Source: a virus
IMG/VR virus record: IMGVR_UViG_3300019764_000005
Span: 8,155 to 72,154 of that record
DNA length: 64,000 nt
Strand: one strand, 5' to 3'
Shown: positions 10,150-53,100 of the stretch, piece by piece
Layout: the number at the start of each line of letters is the position of its first letter
How positions within the stretch are numbered: the stretch's first letter is position 1
The notes under the pieces: model-generated
Told to the model about the DNA's origin: nothing
What the model saw: the letters and a program-made list of their open reading frames with translations, nothing else
The model's database searches: none
Made by a program: the position numbers and the translations under genes

Positions 10150-11796
10150 TTAATCCAAGCTATCTACGATTATACATTCTGTTGTAAGTAACATTCCTGC
10201 TGCAGATGCAGCATTCTCGATTGCAACTCGCGCAACCTTCACAGGATCAATAATGCCTGCAGCGTTCAAATCTTCAACCTCTTCAGTTAAAGCGTTCCAT
10301 CCGAAAGAATGATTTTTTTTCTTAACTTCAGATATAATATCAGATACAATCACTCTTTTATTAAAAAAAGATTCAAAGAATCCGATTTTATCACAAGACA
10401 CGCCAGCATTCATTGCAATCTGTGTAATTGGTTTTTCAATCGCTTTTCTGACGATATTAATACCCATTTGCTCATCTTTAGTGCCTCCGATGATATTATC
10501 AAGTAAGTGTTGAACATGAATGAATGCCGATCCACCACCTGTTATAATTCCTTCTTCAATAGCTGATCTAGTCGCCCATAAAGCATCATCAATACGATCA
10601 AGCTTTTCCTCAGCTTCAGTTTCCGACATGGCACCCACTGTAATTACTGCAGCTTTACCAAGGAGACAACCGATTCTTTTTTCTATCTTATTACGATCAT
10701 TCTTAGATAGCTCTGGATTAAGTTGAGAACGTAACTCCTTAGTTCTATCCCCTATGATATCCTCGTCACCATAGCCAGAAATGATTGTGGTTTTGTCTTT
10801 TTTCACAATCACCTTTTCAGCAGAACCAAGCATTTCAACCGTGACATCCTCGATGTTTATAGCTTTGCTGTCTGAAATTACAATCCCTCCAACAAGGGTT
10901 GCTATGTCTTCAAGTACATCTTTTTTAATTTCTCCTGAAAATGGAGCTTTAATGGCGGCACAGCGAATAGACTTTTTGAAATTATTGAAAGTCATGGTCG
11001 CTAAAGCCTCATCAACTATATCGTCGGCTATGATAATTAATGGTCGTGCTAATTGTGCAGCAATTGTCATAGCAGGTGTTATCTGACTTAATTGAGATAG
11101 AGTGATGTCACAAATCAAAATGATAGGATTCTCAAGAACAGACTGCATTTTACTCATGTCAGTAAGAAAATACTTGTTGCATGCTCCTGATTGAATGTCA
11201 AATCCATCTACAATTTCAACCTTAGTTTCTTCGCCAATCACCCCTTTTGCGTTAACTATCCCCTCTCTTCCGACAGCTTTAATAGCTTCTGAGATAACAT
11301 CACCAATTTCAGGATCATTATTTGCAGATACATTGGCAATAAAGTCAAGGTCTGATAAATCTTCTTTTATTGGTCGAGCTATTTCTTTTAACCCAGATAC
11401 GATAACCCTTGTGGCTTCATCGATACCTCTTTTCAGTAAAATCGGATTAATCCCTGAGTCTACAACCTTAAAACCTAAATTCAGAATAGCTGCTGCTAAA
11501 ATAGTTGCGGTAGATGTTCCGTCACCCGCAGCATTTCTAGTCTTTGAAGCTGCTTCCTTTATAGCCTGTGCGCCTAAATCCTTATAAAGGTTTTTGAAGA
11601 AAATGCTCTCAGCTACACTTACACCATCCTTAGTGATTTGATGTTGTCTGAGATGGTTGTGAATGGCTACGTTTCTACCCTTTGCTCCAAGTGTCACAGC
11701 TACAGCCTGGGCAACTTCATTTGCACCGTCAAGAATCAAAGCTTTAGCATTTTTGCCAAATTTCAACTCCTTGTTCATTTTATTGTCCTCGTTCAT
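10150..11796 (-). CDS. groEL: Chaperonin GroEL
   Basis: TLGAKGRN, ITKDGVSVA, AGDGTSTAT, EEGIITGGG, GIIDPVKV; 548 aa; no GGM tail. Confidence 0.97.
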   Translation of the reverse strand: MNEDNKMNKELKFGKNAKALILDGANEVAQAVAVTLGAKGRNVAIHNHLRQHQITKDGVSVAESIFFKNLYKDLGAQAIKEAASKTRNAAGDGTSTATILAAAILNLGFKVVDSGINPILLKRGIDEATRVIVSGLKEIARPIKEDLSDLDFIANVSANNDPEIGDVISEAIKAVGREGIVNAKGVIGEETKVEIVDGFDIQSGACNKYFLTDMSKMQSVLENPIILICDITLSQLSQITPAMTIAAQLARPLIIIADDIVDEALATMTFNNFKKSIRCAAIKAPFSGEIKKDVLEDIATLVGGIVISDSKAINIEDVTVEMLGSAEKVIVKKDKTTIISGYGDEDIIGDRTKELRSQLNPELSKNDRNKIEKRIGCLLGKAAVITVGAMSETEAEEKLDRIDDALWATRSAIEEGIITGGGSAFIHVQHLLDNIIGGTKDEQMGINIVRKAIEKPITQIAMNAGVSCDKIGFFESFFNKRVIVSDIISEVKKKNHSFGWNALTEEVEDLNAAGIIDPVKVARVAIENAASAAGMLLTTECIIVDSLD

Positions 11797-11840
11797 AATT
11801 CAATTTAATTTGGTAAAAGTTATTCTTATTTAGTATAAAT

Positions 11841-11848
11841 CAAAATTA
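11841..11848 (-). promoter_or_regulatory. -7 promoter box (TAATTTTG) for the groEL-terL-portal operon
   Basis: TAnnTTTG about 45 nt upstream of groEL. Confidence 0.55.
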
Positions 11849-11876
11849 ACTATTTTTAATGGATATATGAAATACA

Positions 11877-11914
11877 ATTTATATTCATTCTAAAAATAGG
11901 TGTTGTTATCTTTG
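11877..11914 (+). promoter_or_regulatory. Composite promoter: ATTTATATTCATTCTAAAA-N11-TATCTTTG
   Basis: Same motif and spacing recur at several promoters; it points into element E2. Confidence 0.65.
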
Positions 11915-11981
11915 TGTAAATGTTATTTTATAACGGATAGTAATATGACCTGTGCGACAATTACGCACGAACCTACAATAA

Positions 11982-12782
11982 ATGAACGAATGTAAAATTT
12001 TTAAAAGCGAAGCGATGGCAAAAAAAATATTATGGTTTAGTTGTGGAGTAACTTCTGCGGTAGCCTGTAAATTAGCCTTAGAAAAATACGGCAAAGAAAA
12101 CTGTTTACTTGCCTATATAAAAATTGATAGTGCACACCCAGACAATAAAAGATTTATTGCAGATTGTGAAAAGTGGTACGATGCACCAATTGAAATATTT
12201 AGAAGTGAAAAATACACCGACCAATACGATGTAATAAAGAAAACAAAGTACGTTAATGGCGTTGGCGGTGCAAGGTGTACTCTTGAATTAAAAAAGAAAG
12301 TGCGTTACGATATTGAAGAAAAATACGACTTTGACGGACAAATATTTGGTTTTGAGTTTACAAAGAAAGAAATAAACCGAGCGATAAGATTTGAAGAACA
12401 ATACCCACACACAAAACCTATTTACCCACTAATTGAAAGCAAACTAAGTAAAGCTGAATGTTTAGGTATATTAACAAAAGCAGGGATTAAACAGCCAGCA
12501 ATGTATGAATTAGGCTACCATAACAATAATTGCATTGGTTGTGTAAAAGGTGGTATGGGGTATTGGAATAAAATACGTGTAGATTTTCCAGAGCATTTTG
12601 AAAGAATGGTTGAAATGGAAGCGCATGCAAATAGAAGCTGTGTAAAAGGTGTATTTCTAAAAGATTTAGACCCAGAAAGAGGCAGACACGAACCGCCAAT
12701 ACTGCCCGATTGCGGTACATTTTGTGAGATTGAATTTGAACATATAATAGATAATAAAGTAGAACAAATTTTAAAAGGTTAA
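11982..12782 (+). CDS. PAPS reductase-like (adenine nucleotide alpha hydrolase fold) protein
   Basis: WFSCGVTSAVA PP-loop, CTLELKK, YELGYHNNNCIGCVKGG; true start may be MAKK. Confidence 0.8.
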   Translation: MNECKIFKSEAMAKKILWFSCGVTSAVACKLALEKYGKENCLLAYIKIDSAHPDNKRFIADCEKWYDAPIEIFRSEKYTDQYDVIKKTKYVNGVGGARCTLELKKKVRYDIEEKYDFDGQIFGFEFTKKEINRAIRFEEQYPHTKPIYPLIESKLSKAECLGILTKAGIKQPAMYELGYHNNNCIGCVKGGMGYWNKIRVDFPEHFERMVEMEAHANRSCVKGVFLKDLDPERGRHEPPILPDCGTFCEIEFEHIIDNKVEQILKG

Positions 12783-12784
12783 AA

Positions 12785-13163
12785 ATGAAAAAACAAACAG
12801 TTTATTTAGCAGGAGGTTTTAATTCTGATTGGAGAGAAAAAGTAAAAGAATGCACCAACGTTGAATTTAAAGACCCGAAAGAAAAAGAACTTAAAAAAGA
12901 GTTTGAATGGCATGAGTATGCTTGTTGGGATTTACACTACATAAAGCATACAGATATTTGCTTGGGTTTACATGGAAAGAACAAACCCAAGCGGATATGG
13001 GTTGAGTGCTGAAATTGGATATGCAAAAGCTTTAGGTAAAACTGTTGTTTTGGTTTTAGAAACTGGGCATGAAAAAGACAGATACTTGAAGTTTTTGAAA
13101 GGGTGTGCCGATGTGGTATATGATAATTTAGAAGATGGAATTGCGTTTTTATCTTCTTTTTAA
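12785..13163 (+). pseudogene. Nucleoside 2-deoxyribosyltransferase-like gene split by a +1 frameshift
   Basis: VYLAGG...D...DI in the first ORF and SGYGLSAEIGYAKALGK in the second; removing one G at 12964-12966 restores ...DICLVYMERTNPSG... Confidence 0.7.
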
Positions 13164-13420
13164 CTCTAATAGCTTTGAAAAAGCTAAAGTGCGGTGGGGC
13201 TTTTAAAAATTTGGCAATTACACACTACCGCTGATTAAATGAACCGAACTAAGCATGGGTTATATTACGTGTTAGGCACTGTGCCTTATTTGATTAGAAG
13301 TACAGACCTACACTAACCCACTTAGTTTTAAACTTGAAAGGCATTGTGCCTAACACTAAGATAAAGCACGTTTTTTCATGTGCTTTCATCGACTGTTATC
13401 GTCCGTTTTAATGGACGAAA

Positions 13421-13449
13421 AAAAAGAGGAGCATTAAACTCCTCTTTTT
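13421..13449. terminator. Bidirectional intrinsic terminator
   Basis: AAAAAGAGGAG-cattaaa-CTCCTCTTTTT between convergent units. Confidence 0.75.
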
Positions 13450-13457
13450 CTATTCGG

Positions 13458-13598
13458 TTATTTATTACCTGCTTTCTTTAACATTGGCAACCCTTTTCTA
13501 CATTTGGACTTTTTACCTATCCCTGCCGATGGACCATGCGTAGAGCTTTTCTTTTTAGTGGCTGTTTTCTTTCCACCATAACCCGCGATTCCTTTCAT
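13458..13598 (-). CDS. Small basic protein (46 aa)
   Basis: Hand translation MKGIAGYGGKKTATKKKSSTHG...; follows the holin in the same orientation. Confidence 0.5.
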   Translation of the reverse strand: MKGIAGYGGKKTATKKKSSTHGPSAGIGKKSKCRKGLPMLKKAGNK

Positions 13599-13625
13599 GT
13601 TATTGATTTTAGATTAATGATTAAT

Positions 13626-14114
13626 TTATTTACCTGACAAAACATTTGTTTTATCTTTACTCCCCTGAGAAGATCCGAAATAAAACGTTATGGATGCAAT
13701 CCATGCTGTCATTAATGAACCCATAACCATATACACGGTCGCCTTGTTCGCTTCAGGTATCGACACATAGAATAAAGCAACTATGGCTAATGCTACCATT
13801 AAGGTAAGAACTATAGCCAGCATTGGAACAATATTTTTAGACAGCCATGATGCATTTTTGGATTTCTGAATTTCCACGTTCATATTCCTTGAATCTTTTC
13901 TGTCAGCTACGTCAAGTTTTAACATTTCGAATAGAGCTCTTTTTTGCTCTCCCTTTATGTCAGACGATGATTTTATTCCATCAGCAATAGCATTTAGCCA
14001 TGGCTGTCCTGTGAGCTTTCCTGCGGCAGCCAAAATAGGTTTCCCGACATCACCCATACCTCTTAGAATGTCACCAATCCTTGTGGTGCCTTTTTCATCT
14101 TTATATTTACCCAT
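13626..14114 (-). CDS. Holin-like membrane protein
   Basis: DRKDSR motif followed by two TM helices and FYFGSS. Confidence 0.65.
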   Translation of the reverse strand: MGKYKDEKGTTRIGDILRGMGDVGKPILAAAGKLTGQPWLNAIADGIKSSSDIKGEQKRALFEMLKLDVADRKDSRNMNVEIQKSKNASWLSKNIVPMLAIVLTLMVALAIVALFYVSIPEANKATVYMVMGSLMTAWIASITFYFGSSQGSKDKTNVLSGK

Positions 14115-28737: not shown

Positions 28738-29112
28738 ATGAAAAGAACTATCAATTTAATGGATGTTAAAATAACAGACATCAACGAAGTCGAGTACAAT
28801 GAGGAACAGATGAAGACTATTGTTAAGCAAGCAGCTAACATGATCTTCAAAAAGGCTGACTCGTATGAAATGCTTGACTATGGGAAAGGATTTCATAATC
28901 TTGAACCGGTTAAAATAAATGAGGATGAAGCTGCCAAGATTAAGGATATAATCAGAAATCCACAGGAAGGGTTCTTGTTTTTTGTATCTGCTCCAATCTG
29001 TGCATATATAGATGAGGAGTTTAAGAAGCCGCTAAAACCCAGACCTAGCAAAATTGAAAATGATGAGCCAATTGGACCTATGGTTATAAAAGAAAAAGAG
29101 GGAGGCGTTTAA
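28738..29112 (+). CDS. Hypothetical protein
   Basis: 124-aa ORF. Confidence 0.6.
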   Translation: MKRTINLMDVKITDINEVEYNEEQMKTIVKQAANMIFKKADSYEMLDYGKGFHNLEPVKINEDEAAKIKDIIRNPQEGFLFFVSAPICAYIDEEFKKPLKPRPSKIENDEPIGPMVIKEKEGGV

Positions 29113-29125
29113 GCTTCCCTCTTTT
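29094..29125. terminator. Bidirectional terminator; exact inverted copy of 50123-50154
   Basis: AAAAGAGGGAGGCGTTTAAGCTTCCCTCTTTT between convergent genes. Confidence 0.75.
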
Positions 29126-33500: not shown

Positions 33501-35266
33501 AGTAGTACACTTATCAATAATCGAAAATAACACTCTTTTATCCCACCTCGGGGAACTTTTAATTCAACCCCCATGAATACTCAATTCCTATTCTGAGGAT
33601 TTCACGCTGAATTAAACAATAATCAGGATTAAATGGAGAAATGGAGAGAATAGACCACTTTTAAGGTGGAAAATGGACTTGGAAAGAGTGAAGAAGGAAG
33701 TGTTAGGGAATGGGAAAAATGAAATTTTGAATAGGCTGAGAGTACCCTAATGCGTTTCCCAGCCCTCTCTTCCACTTCCGAAAGTACCCCCACCCCTTTC
33801 CTATCCATCCGCTTTTCCGTTTCATTTCTATACTTTTTTACCTTTTTTCATGGGGTATTGGTGGCGATGGACTACTTACTATCCACCAACTCTGCACATA
33901 TTACCTAATCTGATTGACTGCCTTATTCGCGCGGAAATGATACTCTATCTCGATATTATGTGTAGATATCTAATACTTTTACAAATGGTCTGTATTTTTT
34001 TCACTACTCACCCAAATACTATTGTCTACTTGGTACAATATTGTGTGTTATGCGAGTTTGTGGTGAGAAATTTAGGGAAATTATGGGAGCTACTCTGCTT
34101 AAGGGGATACTGATTAGGGGAATTCCTCCCTTCCCACAGTCTTTTCCTTCTCATCCTTATTAAATCGTGACATATCCCGTCCTCCCTCGTTATCCCGTCA
34201 TCCCTCCCCTTATCCTTATTTTATTATGGTCTTTCGTTGTCTTGTGTCTTCGTTCCTGTTGTGTCGTGGTGCTTTCGTGTTGTACTGGTATGTTGCCCTG
34301 GGTTTGTGTTATACTCTTTAGTGTTATTCTTTGTATTGTATTGTCTTTACTCTCTATTAGTGGATGACTACTTGCTTAACTGTTTGGAGTATTTGAATTG
34401 ATGGTCATTCTTGTTCTATTATATTATAGTGTTATTTGTTTGTTCTCTTATACTTGTGTGATAATTTACAAATTGTGTGATATCTCTGTACGCCCTATTG
34501 TTACTGGGATACTCAAATTAATTGTCAATTATTTTTAAATTATTTTCACATAGCAATTTGTTTTTGTGTTTTACGGCTGTTTTTAGTCTGTCTATTTATC
34601 ATTTTGTAGCTCATTCTACATGTAACTATTTATTAATGTGTTGTTTGTATTTCTTATCTAGATCATGTAAATATGACGTTCGTACGTGTCAACTGTGTAA
34701 TTATTGTTTAGTACCTTTTTGTTACTATCATTAATTATCAATGATTTAAGTAATTTTGCGTATTAAATCTTTTCGTCGCACCTTAGCAACACAGAACAAC
34801 GAAACACCCCACAAAGGGATTTTTACACTTCTGTATCGTTCTTTATTTCTTGTCTGTTTACATTTCATCCGAAAGGAATTATATTTATTCATAGTGTTCT
34901 AAATATCATTTACCGCGGATTTAATCAGGATAATTAATATCGTACGTTCTTTGACATATAGAAAAGGGGTTTTTTGCAATGAAGGCATTGTTTTAAATCG
35001 GTATCGAGTCTATAATGGACTTAAAACAAAACTCTCACACCCTATGAAATAACAATTAAGTTGATTACTCTGGTAGGGGGTAAATGAATTAAGGTTAGAC
35101 CTTACAGGAATTCTAAGAACCAAAAGAACGGTCATGGGTGTAAAATGATTTACGCCCTAACTTTAATTACATGGCTTGAAAGGCTTTGCGTCTACTATCT
35201 ACTGTTTATGCAATGTGATCTTTATACAGTTTGTTACTGTCAAGCCTACTATATTATTTTGGTATT
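33501..35266. other. Long non-coding divergence region (candidate genome end, origin or early promoter leader)
   Basis: No credible ORFs; purine and pyrimidine tracts; genes diverge on either side. Confidence 0.55.
34945..34957 (+). promoter_or_regulatory. boxA-like antitermination motif CGTTCTTTGACAT
   Basis: Resembles rrn boxA; a second partial copy CGTTCTTTA lies at 34837. Confidence 0.4.
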
Positions 35267-35997: not shown

Positions 35998-36072
35998 GGC
36001 TTAGTAGCTCAGTTGGTAGAGCGCAAAGATTAAATTGTCTTTGGGTCGCGGGTTCGAGTCCCGCTTAAGCCA
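35998..36072 (+). tRNA. tRNA-like RNA with a non-canonical 10-nt anticodon loop (identity undetermined)
   Basis: GGCTTAG/TTAAGCC acceptor, GCTC-AGTTGGTA-GAGC D arm, CAAAG-ATTAAATTGT-CTTTG anticodon arm, GCGGG-TTCGAGT-CCCGC T arm; no encoded CCA. Confidence 0.8.
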
Positions 36073-36100
36073 CAAAATTATTCACTAAAATTTATATAAA

Positions 36101-43999: not shown

Positions 44000-44807
44000 T
44001 AACGGACAAGGCTATGTGGCGTGGCTTTTCGCCATGATATATAGGTAGTGTTAGGCATCTGTATTTTTTTAATTTTTTAGGGAGGGATTTTTTTATTTTA
44101 AACCAGAAACAATGATAGTATTAATAACACACGAAGAAAGCCAAACGGTAATGACTGCATTTTTAGAAGCTGGACACGATGCTTATAGTTGTGATTTATT
44201 GCCAGCAAGTGGAAAGTACCCGGAAAGGCATTTACAAATGGATTACCTAAAGGCTATTGAAAAAATACAGCCTGATTTTTTGGGTATGCACCCAGAATGC
44301 ACACGATTAACAGTTGCAGCAAACAAGTATTATAAACCTGAATATGCAGAAAGGTTTCCGACTATACACCAAGATAGATTAGAAGCGGTTGCACACTTTT
44401 TTAACTGCGCTATGGCTTTGGAAAAAATAGGTAAAGGCTATATTGAAAACCCAATTGGAATAATGAGTCGATTGTATAAAAAACCTACCCAAATAATACA
44501 ACCTTATGAATACGGACACACCGAAAGGAAAAGCACTTGTTTATGGCTTGCCGGATTACCAAAGTTAGAGCCAACAAACATAGTTGAGCCTGATATTATA
44601 GTGCATAAGAGCGGAAGAACTGACAGCCGATTACACTACGAAACATTTAAACTACCTAAAGAGGAAAGGAGAAAAGCACGAAGCAAGACATTTAAAGGAA
44701 TTGCTGATGCTATGAGTACACAATGGTTTTGAAAAAACCAAAGCGGGCGGGCAAAAATTAATAAAATATTGTGCCTAACTACTTTATATATTCACTTTCA
44801 CTTCCTA
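44000..44807 (+). mobile_element. Hairpin-cassette element E3 (54-bp A module, B module 44050-44779 with MTase, type II end)
   Basis: TAAC..CTATGTGGCGTGGC-TTTTC-GCCATGATATATAG..GTTA; B arms GTTAGGCA..TATTTTTTTAATTTTT / AAAAATTAATAAAATATTGTGCCTAAC. Confidence 0.7.
44112..44732 (+). CDS. Phage-type DNA cytosine methyltransferase-like protein
   Basis: EESQ..AF..GH.AYSCD, HPECT (catalytic Cys), IENP, QPYEYG, RSKTF.GIA.AM..QW. Confidence 0.75.
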   Translation: MIVLITHEESQTVMTAFLEAGHDAYSCDLLPASGKYPERHLQMDYLKAIEKIQPDFLGMHPECTRLTVAANKYYKPEYAERFPTIHQDRLEAVAHFFNCAMALEKIGKGYIENPIGIMSRLYKKPTQIIQPYEYGHTERKSTCLWLAGLPKLEPTNIVEPDIIVHKSGRTDSRLHYETFKLPKEERRKARSKTFKGIADAMSTQWF

Positions 44808-45107
44808 CTTACGCACTCATTTACAGTAATATGAACGGTAAAATTAATAAAACATCATATGGATAAATTCTTAATAGCCGAACGCCTAATAGTAGGAGCA
44901 TTGCTATTGTATATGATCCTACCAGTATTAGGTATAATTAGTACTAATTTAACAAGAAAAAAAGCTCATGAAAAAGCCGAAGAAAATAAAGGACCATATG
45001 TCTAAAAAGATTTTAGAGCTTGACACATCTAAGATGGATAATGAAGAGTTGTTTTCGTTCACCAAAAATAAAGAGCATTTTTTTAGAAAACTTTTAAAAT
45101 AATATCA

Positions 45108-45821: not shown

Positions 45822-46236
45822 CGGTAAATTGTATGGCAATGTAATTTTACGGATTTGAAACACAAAATAACAATATTATGAAATGGAAATTTGAAAAAGA
45901 ATTTAGGGCAGACCACCCAGAAACAATAGGTGAAACTGATAGAGAGTTTGACATTGACAATTACAAAGATTGGCTTGAACAAAAGTTAGTAAAATTATTT
46001 GCTATACAAGATGTTAGCCAACGAAGTGAACTGTTAGCAATTGCCGCCCTCGACAAAATTGCACACCCTATTAAACACCTACAAGAAGAAGCTGAAAAGG
46101 ATGGGTGTAAACTTGATGGATATATGGCAATACAGCTAACACAAGATGCTAATTTTTACCAAGAAATTGCAGATAAAGCACTAAAGGCAATTGCTAATTG
46201 TGGCTAACTACTTTATATATTCACTTTTACTTCCTA
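45819..46236 (+). mobile_element. Hairpin-cassette element E4 (A module 45819-46016, B module 46013-46208, type II end)
   Basis: A arms TAACGGTAAATTGTATGGCAATGTAATTTTAC / GTAAAATTATTTGCTATACAAGATGTTA; B arms GTTAGCCA / TGGCTAAC plus a perfect 12-bp IR at 46034-46045 and 46186-46197. Confidence 0.72.
45878..46207 (+). CDS. Hypothetical protein spanning the A/B junction of E4
   Basis: Junction reads I-Q-D-V(GTT)-S-Q-R; stop codon is the TAA of TAAC. Confidence 0.75.
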   Translation: MKWKFEKEFRADHPETIGETDREFDIDNYKDWLEQKLVKLFAIQDVSQRSELLAIAALDKIAHPIKHLQEEAEKDGCKLDGYMAIQLTQDANFYQEIADKALKAIANCG

Positions 46237-46291
46237 TAAACGTACTCATACACAGCGGTATAAGCGGTAAATTTATAAAAAAACCAATCTC

Positions 46292-47496: not shown

Positions 47497-47853
47497 TAAC
47501 GTTGAGCGTTTTGGTAGTTGGGATTTTGAAAGACTACCCTACCAAATATTGATAACTTTAAATAGAAATACGATGAAACAAAATAACACAGAAACCCAAT
47601 TACCTAAACATATTGTTAGCACCCGTTACTTAGATGACGATGTTGTGCTAACCACAGATGATGAGTTCTTCTTTTATTGGGAGGTTAAAAAGCACAAACT
47701 TACAGTAAAAGAAAAAGCTACAGATAAAGAAGCTGCTGAATATAGAAAGGAATTTGCGTATTGGCAAAAAGAAGAACAGGAAAACCAAACTGCTGCAAAT
47801 TACGGTAGTAGTTATGGGTGCTAACTACTTTATATATTCACTTTTACTTCCTA
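47497..47853 (+). mobile_element. Hairpin-cassette element E5 (A module 47497-47618, B module 47615-47825, type II end)
   Basis: A arms TAACGTTGAGCGTTTTGGTAGTTGGG / CCCAATTACCTAAACATATTGTTA; B arms GTTAGCACCC / GGGTGCTAAC. Confidence 0.72.
47573..47824 (+). CDS. Hypothetical protein spanning the A/B junction of E5
   Basis: ATG at 47573 (track uses TTG at 47549); junction reads K-H-I-V(GTT)-S-T-R; stop codon is the TAA of TAAC. Confidence 0.7.
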   Translation: MKQNNTETQLPKHIVSTRYLDDDVVLTTDDEFFFYWEVKKHKLTVKEKATDKEAAEYRKEFAYWQKEEQENQTAANYGSSYGC

Positions 47854-47879
47854 TTGACATGATTATTAAATAATATTAC

Positions 47880-48203
47880 ATGGCAAAAAATAATAAAAAA
47901 GCAACTACCATAAGAGGTGCCACTCCTGTAGAAGATGATAAAGCTATTAATTTTTTCTTCTACGAGGAATCGATAGATCTCGATGATAATGGCAATATAA
48001 TTGAAGTCGAAGAAGTTGTTGATGTAGAAATTGATGATTTATTATTTGCCATAGTCATAATTGATCCTGATATAAGAATAGGACCCATAACTCTCTGTAA
48101 ATGTAGAGGGATACTGAATAAAATTAGGCGTTATACCAATAAAGTATTTTCGTCTGCAAAAATAAACGTCTTAAAAAAGACCGGTAAAGCAATTTTAAAA
48201 TAA
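47880..48203 (+). CDS. Hypothetical protein
   Basis: 107-aa ORF. Confidence 0.55.
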   Translation: MAKNNKKATTIRGATPVEDDKAINFFFYEESIDLDDNGNIIEVEEVVDVEIDDLLFAIVIIDPDIRIGPITLCKCRGILNKIRRYTNKVFSSAKINVLKKTGKAILK

Positions 48204-48210
48204 ATTTCAA

Positions 48211-49329
48211 ATGGAAAACAAATTAGAAGTATTCAGAAAATTATCTCAGATAGATGTAAGTGGATTCACTAAAGAGAAGAGTGGACTAACTTATTTATCA
48301 TGGGCACATGCTTGGAGGGAAGCGTGCATTCTTTACGGTGTGGATTATACTATCTGGAAAGACGAAATGCACAGACCTTATGTGTTCGATCCAAATCTTG
48401 GGTATATGGTTTTCACTACTGTTACAATCGAATGTGACACTAAAGAAATGTGGCTGTTCGTTATGGATGGTGCAAATAAGGCTATGAAGAATGAGCCTTA
48501 CACATACAAGGTAACTGATTGGGCTGCCACCAACAAGAAAAGGGATGAAGCCAAAAGAGGAGGCATGTCAGATCGCGAAGCTAAAAGCATAACTATTTTC
48601 AAAGACAAGACTTGCGAAGCTGCTTCAATGTTCGATATTAATACCACTATCATGCGTTGCCTGGTAAAAAACTTAGCAATGTTTGGTTTGGGAATAAACA
48701 TATATGCTGGTGAAGATCTTCCAAGGGAAATTCTTCCTTCAGAAGAAGAGGCTGTAGAGGAGGTTAAGGAGTGTAAAACTAAAGAAGAGGTTAATGCTAC
48801 TTGGGGTAAGTATCCAAAATATCAGTCACAAGGTTCTGCTTTTTATATTGCTATTGCTTCAAAAAATAAAGAGCTTGCTGAGCCTAAGGCAGCTCCGGCA
48901 AAGGAGAAGGTTACTGAGGAAAAGCCTGTTAAGAAATCCACTGAGGTTGAGCCAGAAACTAAACCTGAACCCATTAAGCCTAAGACTGAAACCGAAAAGC
49001 CTAATGCTAAGGTGGAAAAACCAGCAGTCAAGGTCACTAAAGCTAAAGCTGAAGAGACAAAGGTTGATAAGAAGCCTGAAAAGAATATCTCATCCAACAC
49101 GGAAACTACACCTGAAACTAAGCCGTCGCCAGTTGATGACACAAAAACTAAGACAGCGACGGACCTCAAGGCTGCTGCAGGGTTAATCAGTCAAGCCTTA
49201 CTAGAAATAAGGGATTGTACTACTCTTAAAGCTCTCACGTCTATTTGGAACAAATATAAGCAGTTTAGAGAAATTGCTCAATTTAAAAATGCTGTTGCTA
49301 ATAAGACCAAGGACCTTAAGAAGAAGTAG
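48211..49329 (+). CDS. Sak3/DUF1071 single-strand annealing protein with a long P/K/E-rich linker
   Basis: LTYLSWAHAW, MWLFVMD..NKAM, DINTTIMRCLVKNLAMFGLGINIYAGEDLP. Confidence 0.85.
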   Translation: MENKLEVFRKLSQIDVSGFTKEKSGLTYLSWAHAWREACILYGVDYTIWKDEMHRPYVFDPNLGYMVFTTVTIECDTKEMWLFVMDGANKAMKNEPYTYKVTDWAATNKKRDEAKRGGMSDREAKSITIFKDKTCEAASMFDINTTIMRCLVKNLAMFGLGINIYAGEDLPREILPSEEEAVEEVKECKTKEEVNATWGKYPKYQSQGSAFYIAIASKNKELAEPKAAPAKEKVTEEKPVKKSTEVEPETKPEPIKPKTETEKPNAKVEKPAVKVTKAKAEETKVDKKPEKNISSNTETTPETKPSPVDDTKTKTATDLKAAAGLISQALLEIRDCTTLKALTSIWNKYKQFREIAQFKNAVANKTKDLKKK

Positions 49330-49336
49330 GATTTAC

Positions 49337-49366
49337 GGAGTCCTGTAATGGGGCTCCATTTTTTTT
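49337..49366 (+). terminator. Intrinsic terminator
   Basis: GGAGTCC-loop-GGGCTCC followed by a T run. Confidence 0.7.
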
Positions 49367-49385
49367 CACTTAAAATATCACTGCT

Positions 49386-49583
49386 ATGAAAAATGGAAAT
49401 TTATTAACTCGGTTTTTAACCAGAGATACAAAATCTAGCATTAGTGATGAAGATAAACTATTTGTAGCATCATGTTTCGCTATGCAAGGGATGTTGCAGA
49501 GTTGTTACGATAGAGGGGTTAGTCCTAAAAGAACAGCTCAAGACTCAGTGATATGTGCTAAAGAACTATTGAAATTAATTTAA
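49386..49583 (+). CDS. Hypothetical protein
   Basis: A..AMQGML...A..LL small phage-protein pattern. Confidence 0.55.
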   Translation: MKNGNLLTRFLTRDTKSSISDEDKLFVASCFAMQGMLQSCYDRGVSPKRTAQDSVICAKELLKLI

Positions 49584-49591
49584 TTGGAAAC

Positions 49592-49613
49592 GCTCTTTAT
49601 AAAAGAGCACAAA
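49592..49613 (+). repeat. GCTCTTT-N3-AAAGAGC hairpin, copy 5
   Basis: GCTCTTTATAAAAGAGCACAAA. Confidence 0.8.
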
Positions 49614-49622
49614 TAAAACAAT

Positions 49623-50114
49623 ATGGATAAGATAAATATTAGCGAAGAAATGAAAGTGCATGAAGAATGGTTTAAAGAAGCGAACATTCAAACACTTGAA
49701 ACATTGCCTGATTTCATGAAAAAACTAACTACAGCATATAGCCACGACTATGGGACTATTTGTCACGCTGTTAGTGCGGCTGCGCTCGGTGCGGCATATG
49801 CTATCAATAATAGTGATTGTGGTGGGATTACTGGATTTCAAGCAAGTGCCGTCATGTGGAGTTTTGTTCGACAATGGAATCACAGCAACAATAAACTTGG
49901 ATTAAAATTAGTGGATTACGACAACTTGCTTTATCCACAATATGAAGATAGGTTTAAAAATAAGATTAGTACTGAACATTGGGAACGCGTTCAAGAGCAT
50001 GCTAAACTTAGATTAAAGGAAAATGATGGTACGGCACACCCCAATGTTATTGCTCATTGGCAAGGAATGGCTGATGGAAATTTACCATTTGATTTCGTGA
50101 TAGGAGATGACTAA
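49623..50114 (+). CDS. Hypothetical phage protein
   Basis: 163-aa ORF, last gene of the rightward arm. Confidence 0.65.
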   Translation: MDKINISEEMKVHEEWFKEANIQTLETLPDFMKKLTTAYSHDYGTICHAVSAAALGAAYAINNSDCGGITGFQASAVMWSFVRQWNHSNNKLGLKLVDYDNLLYPQYEDRFKNKISTEHWERVQEHAKLRLKENDGTAHPNVIAHWQGMADGNLPFDFVIGDD

Positions 50115-50122
50115 TTTATTTT

Positions 50123-50154
50123 AAAAGAGGGAAGCTTAAACGCCTCCCTCTTTT
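50123..50154. terminator. Bidirectional terminator; exact inverted copy of 29094-29125
   Basis: AAAAGAGGGAAGCTTAAACGCCTCCCTCTTTT between convergent arms. Confidence 0.75.
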
Positions 50155-50157
50155 TTT

Positions 50158-53100
50158 TTATATTCCAGATTTTAATCCTCGATGTTTCTTTTTCTCCTTC
50201 TCTCTCACCTTCCTAGTTTTACCTGTAATTCCATATTCCGAATATCCAAGTGTCTTAAGGAAATCATCCAAGTCTCCCGTCTCTATAAGTTCGGTAGCTC
50301 CTTCCACAGTGTTCTCTATGTTTTTTAATGGCATTCTAAATAATGATCCAAGGAAATACATGAGCTCTACATACTCATCCATATGGTCCTTCTCTTTAAA
50401 GAATCCCTTTATGGCTCTCTCCACCTGGTCATACACTCCAACTCCTAAGCTAAGTCCAAATGTTTTGCCCTGGACTTGATCCGCAATGAAATTTATCACA
50501 TCTCCAACAACGAACAATGCATTAAGATTTCCCATTATTGCAGCTCTTCCGAGATCACTCCATGCATCTTCATCATCTCCGCGTATAAATGCTGTTACCC
50601 CGGATGCAACAAGCTGATAAGCCATATTAACAACTGAATGATACATGATTAATCTCTTGATATCTTTCTTGTTCGGTTTCTTACCTGCCTTTATCGACCT
50701 TGAAATCGAATTGACTGATTGAATGGTTTGATTAAGGAATAAAATATTAGAAGATTTAAATGTGGTCACAAGTCTATTACCAAAACTAGCATTCAATTGT
50801 GCCTGAGATAAATGAACTGCAGATCTTGTTTGTTGACTTTCCTCGTAAATATCGAATTCCTCAGAAGCCTTTTTAATCGCATCTGCTTCGCTCATTCCCT
50901 CATTCATGTACTTTGCCTTAGCTTGCATGTAGATCGGGGCATATCCGTACATTATAGCCCCTACGTCACCTGCTAAAGTTGGTGCCATAACAAACCTTTG
51001 CACTCTTTCGTAGAATCCCCTCTGTATTCCTAACTTGGCAGCTCTTTTCGATTCTCTTTTGATAAAGTCAGGATCCAAATTACTTCCCTTGTCTACTCTG
51101 GCTCGTATCTTTGGGTTATTCAAAAGGATTTCAGCAAACACTCTACCAGCTTTCATTGGGTTGGTAGCCAATGATGCGACATCCTTCGCCCACATCACAC
51201 TATTATATCCTGGGAATTTAGATGCGTTTGCATTTTGGTACTCAACTGCTCCAGTAACAATTGATGTTAACTGAACCGGAAGTTGTTTAATCTTGGCGCC
51301 CAATACTCCAATACCATATGCTGAAACTATTGTAGAGCCCACACCGTATTCAGCTTTAAATATATCTTTGTTTATAGAATGTCTCAGTAATTTAGATACA
51401 AGATCAAATCCTTTTTTGCCAAGCTTCTGATTTGCTCTGGTCTTAAACTTATCTGAACTTAAAATAGCACTTGTGCTTTTAGCAACATCTGCCCAAGCCA
51501 TAAAATGCTCCATCTCGGTGATGTGATTACTTATAAGACCAACAAATGACACATCCTTGCCATCTACTGCAGATTTAGTCATCAATTTCCTATCAGTAGA
51601 TGTTCTTTCCTTCAGGGCTGAAGCCATGGTGGATGATAATTTAGTAAATGGATCACTATCAGTACTTATATCAACAGTCCCAGATTTAGCGCGAACTACA
51701 GGATGGTAATCCTGTCTTCCTGAGAAATCAATTCTGAATATCCTGCGGTAGACGTCATTTACCCTATCAGCATACTCAGTACTCAACCAATTCCCAACCT
51801 CATCAACAAATTGAACAAGGTCTGATCCAATTTGATCCTTCATGTTCTCAATCTCCGTAGCAGAAATGCCATTTTTTTCACTCAACTCTCTGGCTAATTC
51901 AGGCGTTCTACTCCAAGCATAAATACTCATAGCCTCACCCTTAGTAACCACATCCACACCTTCCACTCCGTCTTTCTCAGTTCTTATCTCAATAAATTCT
52001 GACATTCTTTTATCGAGGTTTGCAAATTCTTTATCGCTTTTTAACCCAAGTGTCTTCTCAGCTATATCTTTAACTTTCTTGTGCGATTCAGCAATACCTT
52101 TAATCTCACTACTCTCAGCTTTTACAATAGGATCGTAAATCTTTTTAATTACCGTACCTTTACCAACTTCAACCGCCTCAGTGCTCATTAATTCAAGCAT
52201 TGTTTTTACGTGATTTGTTGGGCGTGTAATAAAGTTAAATAAATCGGATGGGGATTCCTTAATCCTTTCCCAGACATTCTGAAGAAGAGTTTTATTTTCC
52301 TTATCCCTCCTATTTTCTGTCTTTTCATCTTTGGGCTCAATAGAGCTTTCAATATCATGGACAAGATCGCGCAATCGATTCGATTCTTTTGCTATTTCTG
52401 ACTTAAGATTCTCTCTACCCGCCTTGTCAATGTCTTTTAATCTGGACGAAAATTCATCTACAGTATCAATGTCTAAAGCATTGAAATTCCTAAAGTCCTC
52501 AATAGCCTGCAGTTCTGCATTGTATTTATTAGCGGTATGCTCTGGACCATTAACAAGCTTATCAAGTGCTTCCTGATATGCGTCATCCATGGCTTTATTA
52601 ACTCTTTCGTTCTCCAATTGAGATTGAGCTGCATTCCTCTCATCCACTTTATCTTTCAGTTTTTTGCCGGTTAAACCTTCAGTAGAATATTTTTTAGACA
52701 GTTCACTCTTAACTTGCTTCGATATATCTTTGATAGATTTTATAACACCGCTTGCTTTCTGAAAATATGGAATGGTAAACACATCGCCTCCTCTGGCTTT
52801 CACCTTCCCGGAAATCTGAGTAGTCCTTGTCTTCCCGACAAATTTAGCGATATCTTTTTTCTTTCTCTTTACGGAACGCTCCTGAACATTAGCAACCACA
52901 CTGTCAACTTTATCAATCTGCTTTGCTAATTGTTGAAACGAAACTGCACTTTTAACCCCAGACAATAATCTGTTAAGATCTGATTTACCGATATCCTTCC
53001 CTTCTGCTGCGTACAGAGAAGTCTTAATATAATCAAGAAGTGAGGATTGTGATTTCCCTATGTCGGTTTTAGCTTCCTTGACTCCCTCTTTGGCTGCTCT

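Follow-up and report, generated by a model that had tools for sequence, protein, structure and literature searches.

The attC sites of integron cassettes are compact (about 57–141 nt), lie at the 3' end, carry the motifs RYYYAAC ... GTTRRRY and need IntI. Phage morons are extra transcription units within a conserved block of genes, and neither complementary flanks nor a common frame belong to their definition; pairing of 5' and 3' flanks around a functional RNA is known from the processing stalks of rRNA precursors and from RNase III sites in phage mRNAs. In T4-type phages, the promoter early stem-loop (PeSL) cassettes are described as short conserved regulatory modules that flank non-essential genes of variable regions (PMC2839356, PMC4122927); PeSLs are characterised there as promoter-plus-terminator units, repeated in one orientation to either side of a gene, and as both regulatory and recombinogenic (PMC2839356). 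Here we describe a two-gene unit enclosed by nested repeats in a 64,000-nt stretch of DNA (the window) taken from a 72,154-base IMG/VR virus record (G000) that is rated 68% complete. The region is best read as a rather divergent member of a family of bracketed cassettes that carry accessory genes in AT-rich uncultured phages. A literature search for bracketed anti-defence cassettes returned nothing equivalent; the paper nearest in topic reportedly deals with regulatory-sequence-based discovery of anti-defence genes in archaeal viruses (PMC11065993).

The two cargo genes, a PptA-like PP-loop gene (gene 1) and a gene of the nucleoside deoxyribosyltransferase family (gene 2), are surrounded in the window by outer arms, a direct repeat and an inner inverted repeat (IR), arranged symmetrically (Table 1). 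A first-pass annotation, made from the letters of the window, had proposed this nested layout, which is real and recurs in other phages. The inner IR is perfect over 14 of 14 positions, its arms are the sole exact copies within the window and are spaced 1190 nt apart, and 1 of 1000 dinucleotide shuffles of both intergenic flanks produced an exact inverted match of 14 nt or more. Of the longer arms originally assigned to hairpin A, the solid part is a 16-nt helix with 13 Watson-Crick pairs and 3 G.T pairs. The degenerate direct repeat lies where it had been placed and is 73% identical without gaps (11958–11987 / 13215–13244), or 25/34 with one gap; it consists of two conserved blocks, CAATTACRCAC and TAAATGAAC(C)GAA, with a variable middle between them, and within the window CAATTACRCAC is found without mismatch at the two copies only. 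Taken alone this repeat is weak, its alignment score being reached in 100 of 1000 shuffles. Both the G-rich tract beside the right inner arm and the 25-codon open reading frame (ORF) are likewise present, the latter with no family match, and the 3' intergenic region as a whole is strongly structured (z = -6.19).

Eleven cassettes share one architecture: that of the window, two in locus L172, and one each in L175, L232, L234, L239, L243, L248, L249 and L252; the brackets of L232, L239 and L248 are nearly identical. Their inner helices are perfect and 13–21 bp long. The loop segments have shared words and are mostly 29–47 nt, those of the first L172 cassette being 13 and 2 nt, and the outer helices measure 8–23 bp, with scores reached by 0 of 200 shuffles in seven of the eleven. 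G-rich words stand at the inner side of both arms: the right arm is preceded by GTGCGGTGGG or GTGCGATGG, and at the left inner position the relatives of the window's cassette have GAAGGGATGG, GAAGCGAGGG or GAAGCGTGGGG. The inner left arm ends 0–6 nt 5' of the start codon in the window, in both L172 cassettes and in L175. Arm sequences differ among the eleven cassettes and complementarity is kept in all of them. In L172 the following gene, a Dam methylase gene, has a perfect 20-nt bracket of its own, with AAGCGGTGG before the right arm.

We scanned IMG/VR for GTGCGGTGGGGCTTTT and recovered 22 viral contigs. Eight of these (GC 0.27–0.38) have, 344–2130 nt upstream, an exact 13–21-nt complement of the stretch that follows the word; in L244 a 13-nt match is on the wrong side, L240 has no upstream sequence, and the other 12 reach 7–10 nt (7–9 nt in six contigs with GC of at least 0.48, and 8–10 nt in six with GC 0.29–0.43). 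As a matched null we used about 16,434 mismatched pairs of a 43-nt leader and a 160-nt gene tail from four phage records, in which an exact complement of at least 12 nt was found 59 times, of at least 14 nt twice, and of at least 16 nt never. In G000 none of 78 genes, and in G001 2 of 49, showed complementarity of at least 12 nt between own leader and own tail, counts that rule out leader–tail complementarity as a general gene property of these phages. A right-flank hidden Markov model (HMM) built without the window matches it at 13187–13242 (E 6.7e-4). The flank HMMs together also found a third bracketed cassette in the L172 record (L224, 590–1672), which encodes a 298-aa protein with no Pfam match. 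Elsewhere in the window, a three-gene unit at 48211–50114, led by a Sak-type single-strand annealing protein (PF06378, E 9e-36), has a 14-nt all-A/T leader–tail complement and no G-rich word, and this match may be due to chance.

What lies inside the bracket varies. The cargo includes a Tad2-like protein (PF11195, E 9.7e-21), RtcB (E 1.3e-60), a TROVE protein, Dam, two N6/N4 methylases and two 95-aa proteins without an assigned family, as well as the pair of PptA-like and deoxyribosyltransferase genes. The brackets of L232, L237, L239 and L248 are mutually 80–89% identical; their cargo is 98% identical between L232 and L237 and otherwise at background level (61–63%), and the sequence outside these brackets is at background identity too. 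One frame thus holds different genes, and one cassette sits in different places. If the bracket is such a shared frame, flanks alone would mark accessory and counter-defence genes in uncultured phages, and the two 95-aa proteins and the gene pair would be candidates for new counter-defence functions. In L249 (8454–10600) some 600 nt devoid of any long ORF stand ahead of the bracketed TROVE (Ro60-like) gene; since small RNAs are the usual partners of Ro proteins, this stretch may harbour an RNA gene.

The gene pair itself also recurs. A search with gene 2 yielded 20 IMG/VR loci, with L167/L168 and L170/L171 as near-duplicates, and in 11 of the 20 a PptA-like gene directly adjoins the deoxyribosyltransferase-like gene; seven of these pairs were identified by tblastn and four are of a more distant type (profile comparison probability 93%). 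Both gene orders occur, stop and start codons often overlap, and further neighbours include genes for N6/N4, C5 and Dam methylases, ERF, NinG and a DnaA-C helix-turn-helix protein. Perfect inverted repeats of 18 nt enclose the pair in L172 and L175 (0 of 300 shuffles), and in L173 it lies between perfect 22-nt direct repeats with no IR. With contexts that vary, both gene orders and repeats around some copies, the pair does not behave as a stable core locus that lacks flanking repeats. Because the two genes are adjacent in many phages, often beside DNA methylases, they most likely act together on DNA or nucleotides. Among the 80 closest relatives of gene 1 (54–62% identity) none has a deoxyribosyltransferase-like neighbour; these genes lie among methylase, DUF551, primase-helicase and polymerase genes, and in 76 loci with a PptA-like gene alone the longest leader-to-downstream complement is 11 nt. 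On a Paludibacteraceae contig from a metagenome-assembled genome (MAG; L200, 450–1638), a G-rich word and a T-rich stretch follow each of two genes, one deoxyribosyltransferase-like and one DHHA1-like; the DHHA1-like gene is followed in addition by CAATTACGCA, which in the window is the first block of the direct repeat.

A folded single strand is favoured as the basis of the bracket because complementarity is kept despite changed sequence, because there is a strand bias, and because the inner arm is fixed beside the start codon. Read on the cargo sense strand, the non-Watson-Crick positions in DNA-defined helices are seven G.T and no A.C, and the outer-helix mismatches are nine G.T, no A.C and four others. 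On cofolding, the inner helix has a pairing probability of 0.96–0.998 in the three other cassettes tested. We lean, with about even confidence, to the view that the flanks form a modular frame for accessory or counter-defence genes and pair when single-stranded, most plausibly in mRNA. The 5' flank consists of an outer arm, a loop segment of 30–45 nt with shared words and an AT-rich inner arm whose last letters are ...AAAAGC, followed by a G-rich word that includes the start codon. In the 3' flank the G-rich word GTGCGGTGGGGC is followed by the complement of the inner arm, another loop segment and the complement of the outer arm, and one or two cargo genes lie between the flanks. Paired in the sense transcript, the flanks would form a closing stem of two helices, the inner of which would lie over the AU-rich stretch immediately upstream of the AUG, and the processing, stability or translation of the cargo mRNA would thereby be tied to the stem. 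Brackets common to many cassettes would at the same time provide boundaries for recombinational exchange, and exchange at these shared boundaries would account for the patchy distribution, for both gene orders and for the antisense position in the window. Shine-Dalgarno-like leaders appear to be absent, and a closing stem over the ribosome landing zone would, if real, be a mode of mRNA control in hosts without Shine-Dalgarno pairing.

Several observations weigh against this interpretation. The G.T counts include related copies (L232, L239 and L248) and do not represent nine independent events; many outer helices have just one G.T, and this may go back to a single inherited position. In the window the inner helix has a pairing probability of only 0.09 on cofolding of the sense strand, because a local GCGGUGG:CUACCGC pairing competes, and the outer helix alone forms. 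The left-flank HMM built without the window barely sees it (E 0.66), a sign that this copy has diverged. Pairing does not explain why the G-rich words keep their sequence. Of the eleven loci outside the window that carry the gene pair, seven have no significant flanking repeat. Finally, the 22-nt direct repeat of L173 and the window's direct repeat outside the IR fit insertion at the DNA level better. The duplex energy of the window (-38.9) is within the range of controls (mean -29.3, sd 7.5), only L172 and L175 being outliers.

Insertion at the DNA level, close to what was first proposed for this locus, would mean that cargo entered the loop of a hairpin-forming intergenic module and duplicated that loop. 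Each arm would then be one half of a recombination or fragile site, folded as a single strand or as a cruciform, on which an enzyme of the phage or the host acts in trans or which works through hairpin cleavage and repair. The topology of armL-core-arm'R / arm'L-core-armR fits, as the window's direct repeat lies between the inner IR and the outer arms, and L172 has a corresponding order of an 8-bp outer helix, TCTG / TTG and an 18-bp inner helix; the perfect direct repeats around the L173 pair agree as well. Arms of the module B type, GTTAGGCACA / TGTGCCTAAC, hold 66 nt in the window and a 1.3-kb gene pair in L168. One cassette in unrelated contexts, one bracket with different cargo, the two gene orders and the position of the cassette, antisense within a minus-strand block, all speak for mobility, and a folded DNA strand is equally compatible with the G.T bias. 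Against this, cargo-free modules did not appear: there is no empty site among the relatives retrieved, whose chaperonins are at most 44% identical, no contig in four runs skips the cargo, though contigs drop rare variants and X4–X6 cover the region incompletely, and an uninterrupted copy of the outer hairpin is found in none of the loci examined. Searches for PF00589 and for serine recombinases (PF00239) gave 0 matches in G000 and in three related records (G001–G003), of which G000 is rated 68% complete and G003 complete. Arm sequences vary among cassettes, unlike transposase-bound terminal repeats, and the inner arm always abuts the start codon, a position that mobility alone does not need. 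We regard a DNA-level cassette as possible and rather doubtful, and note that an origin of this kind and pairing in mRNA are not mutually exclusive. A broader proposal, to which we give still less credence, is that the brackets are recombination sites of an integrase-independent phage cassette system: a folded single-strand site whose halves flank the cargo, with which the phages of one host group would trade counter-defence genes (for methylases, Tad2, RtcB, Ro-like proteins, and PptA plus deoxyribosyltransferase) and whose structure would double as expression control.

Inverted repeats around a unit could also form an invertible switch, letting the cassette flip and so be turned on or off with respect to promoters that lie outside it; in the window it runs antisense to the adjoining genes, and in L172 and L175 it is co-oriented with them, as flipping would allow. 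Yet no invertase (PF00239, PF00589) is found in G000–G003, no opposite-strand joint is seen at the arms in contigs of the four runs, which do not display minor forms, the sole such joint being at the separate 78-nt repeat, and promoter-like words and a terminator-like hairpin accompany the cassette in its own orientation. Such a switch is very improbable.

An ordinary moron would leave the repeats as by-products of a regulatory vocabulary, with an A-rich leader set against a T-rich terminator tail plus promoter words. The insignificance of the direct repeat when taken alone is in keeping with this, as is the recurrence of CAATTACGCA, TAACTACTTTAT and G-rich-plus-T-rich words in intergenic regions of related contigs. 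The cargo has 33.8% G+C and the window 36.8% +/- 2.1; the cargo falls at the window's 9th percentile and is no outlier, and the value says little. However, the arms are mixed A/T words and not homopolymers and are exact over 13–21 nt, a length of 14 nt is hardly ever reached in the matched null drawn from these genomes, and the outer helices are separately complementary. We consider a moron with incidental repeats improbable. Promoter-like words are found elsewhere in the window, which has three copies of a 90-nt promoter-like module (44768–44857, 46197–46286 and 47814–47903), each upstream of a plus-strand gene; two of the three start GTGSCTAAC, and the 12-mer TAACTACTTTAT is also found right after the cassettes in L169 and L172. 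In addition, five intergenic hairpin modules (at 35266, 36292, 43973, 47470 and 49591) have the form GCTCTTT-loop-AAAGAGC followed by ACAAA..., and a 37-nt terminator-like hairpin is present in two inverted copies (29089–29125 and 50123–50159, 97%).

Table 1. Positions of the cargo genes, bracket elements and adjoining features within the window.
Feature	Coordinates	Strand	Remarks
Outermost left arm TTATCTTTGTGT	11906..11917	+	11/12 complementary to 13353-13364; encloses everything including module B
Outer left arm (hairpin A)	11940..11955	+	Pairs with 13253-13268
Left loop segment	11958..11990	+	Left direct-repeat copy (CAATTACGCAC ... TAAATGAACGAA)
Inner left arm AAATTTTTAAAAGC	11995..12008	+	Ends 6 nt 5' of start codon
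Left inner G-rich word GAAGCGATGG	12009..12018	+	Includes ATG at 12015
Gene 1, PptA-like PP-loop ('PAPS reductase-like')	12015..12782	+	255 aa
Gene 2, nucleoside deoxyribosyltransferase family	12785..13163	+	12785-13012, then +1 frame open 12944-13163
Small hairpin TAGCTTT-GAA-AAAGCTA	13170..13186	+	Right after stop codon; counterpart at same place in L200
Right inner G-rich word GTGCGGTGGGGC	13189..13200	+	Abuts right inner arm 5'; conserved across cassette family
Inner right arm GCTTTTAAAAATTT	13199..13212	+	14/14 complement of inner left arm
Right loop segment	13215..13248	+	Right direct-repeat copy; holds ATG of 25-codon ORF
25-codon ORF	13239..13316	+	
Outer right arm	13253..13268	+	Partner of 11940-11955
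Module B	13269..13356	+	88-nt imperfect hairpin, end arms GTGTTAGGCAC / GTGCCTAACAC
78-nt two-hairpin element	13343..13420	+	Inverted copy (95%) of 1346-1423
Hairpin of A-tract, GC stem, T-tract	13421..13449	.	Sits between convergent genes

The identities first given to the two cargo genes hold, and HMM and structure searches support the PP-loop and deoxyribosyltransferase families. Gene 1 belongs to phrog_424 (E 2.6e-48) and matches chain C of PDB entry 21fy, named PptA, over residues 5–242 (E 3.9e-62); it falls under the Pfam gathering cut-off for the PAPS reductase domain PF01507 (19.8 vs 22.5 bits) and has a weak PADLOC profile match to SspD (E 1.5e-6). The fold of its AlphaFold2 model (predicted local distance difference test, pLDDT, 86.7) matches PAPS/APS reductase, LarE, NcsA and TtuA, and several cysteines, including C173-x-x-C176, are invariant in 26 sequences. 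Judging by this predicted fold, gene 1 may encode an enzyme of a kind seen among sulfur-transfer or adenylation enzymes. A literature search whose scope excluded supplementary files found no paper on the PptA of 21fy. Nothing on PAPS reductase-like phage genes was found either, and the available portions of reviews and of a comparative paper do not deal with the stand-alone phage family.

Gene 2 is broken in the window by one extra base in the G run 12964–12966, so the idea that a nested insertion delivered whole genes fails for this member of the pair. The extra base is placed in this run because intact alleles read ...HTDICFVYMERTNPSG. The read-through translation scores 34.5 bits against Nuc_deoxyri_tr2 (PF15891, cut-off 30), and the fragments alone 19.6 and 17.9 bits. 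At 90% clustering the window's 75-aa and 63-aa pieces (four contigs) fall together with eight intact members of 125–128 aa. Contigs of runs X1 and X4, which are possibly not independent of source, span the frameshift site without differences, which indicates that the break is present in the population and is no slip of one assembly. A programmed +1 frameshift is unlikely, given the intact alleles and the absence of any known slippery motif. The gene 2 family conserves the Glu of E-x-G-Y-A-K and an N-terminal Y-L-A-G-G, and the catalytic Glu is kept in 21 of 21 family sequences. The model of an intact allele (pLDDT 89.5) matches the folds of deoxyribosyltransferases, YtoQ, MilB/BcmB and DNPH1, and from these matches we infer the chemistry of a deoxyribosyltransferase or nucleotide N-glycosidase-family enzyme.

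The cassette is flanked on one side by a minus-strand chaperonin gene (10150–11796; PF00118, E 2.5e-61) and on the other by genes, likewise on the minus strand, that encode a 46-aa protein, a holin-like protein and tail proteins. Its two genes are the sole plus-strand genes of this stretch, antisense within a minus-strand block of chaperonin, lysis and tail genes, and near-identical sequence is present in contigs of several microbial-mat runs. Relatives of the chaperonin in IMG/VR and metagenomes are 41–44% identical at most, so that no close phage relative is available for a filled-versus-empty comparison; none of them has the cargo and none has the neighbouring genes. The best chaperonin matches are to Bacteroides and Flavobacterium phages, and gene 2 relatives were found on Paludibacteraceae and Saprospiraceae MAG contigs. 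On the strength of these matches and MAG contigs, the host of the window phage, and of the cassette-bearing AT-rich uncultured phages, is probably a member of the Bacteroidota.

Module B, which adjoins hairpin A on the right, is present as described, its arm pair of 34 nt (13269–13302 / 13323–13356) being 74% complementary. Within it are two near-palindromic sites, 13275–13285 (TTAGGCACTGTGCCTTA) and 13340–13350 (AAAGGCATTGTGCCTAA), spaced 65 nt apart, which by their form look like operators of a dimeric regulator. The two copies of the 78-nt element bound a 12-kb segment, and contigs of run X1 end at both, so that short reads cannot fix the orientation of this segment. The hairpin at the junction of the convergent genes has the form expected of a bidirectional terminator and may act as one. 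An Rfam scan of 11780–13640 gave nothing beyond a sub-threshold sraA match (E 0.11), and across the window one tRNA alone passed the gathering score. This tRNA gene (35998–36073, 56.8 bits) is assigned by ARAGORN a four-base anticodon (aaat) and no amino acid. A sigma-70 promoter scan gave 6 sites against 8.2 expected. The left flank was also considered as a member of the D1 promoter family, for which the alignments were unconvincing.

Among described systems, phage morons resemble the window's cassette in that it is an extra unit on the opposite strand between genes of a conserved block, with its own terminator-like hairpin. A terminal inverted repeat transposon or miniature inverted-repeat transposable element would have terminal inverted repeats plus a target-site duplication; here an IR is present, and the flanking direct repeats are 25/34 in the window, TCTG / TTG in L172 and 22 nt without IR in L173. 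Copies of such an element would share one terminal sequence and have a transposase; here arm sequences differ between cassettes, and the recombinase search covered the serine and tyrosine families only. As for the cargo, gene 1 is like SspD and DndC in its PP-loop fold and conserved cysteines and unlike them in having no SspABC or DndDE partners nearby, and gene 2, with the same fold as nucleoside 2-deoxyribosyltransferases, DNPH1/Rcl and the CMP N-glycosidases MilB/BcmB, is a short form of 125 aa.

The comparison with attC, suggested by the first-pass annotation, stands in that the cassettes hold one or two genes, that variable arms have conserved complementarity, and that a strand bias suggests single-strand folding. 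It does not extend to the site itself: the arms flank the cargo on opposite sides, 1190 nt apart, GTTAGGC ... GCCTAAC in module B is the reverse of the attC order, and no PF00589 protein, and thus no tyrosine recombinase of that family, is found in G000–G003. The bracket is no attC. Processing stalks offer a structural parallel in their two helices with an internal loop, the difference being that here a protein-coding mRNA would be enclosed.

The PeSL cassettes, as far as they are described in the two reports introduced above, are similar in that one flanking module is shared by units with different cargo and one cargo turns up in different contexts, with no dedicated recombinase known. They differ in that here the 5' and 3' flanks are mutually complementary over two helices, that G-rich words are present and that the inner arm stands right beside the start codon. 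The two flanks match as inverted complements, the longest direct matches in L172 and L175 being 8–9 nt. Mini-circles are given as a feature of the PeSL system, whereas the cassettes described here are known from contigs. If the bracket is a shared frame, it would be a second, structurally different example of small regulatory modules driving phage gene shuffling.

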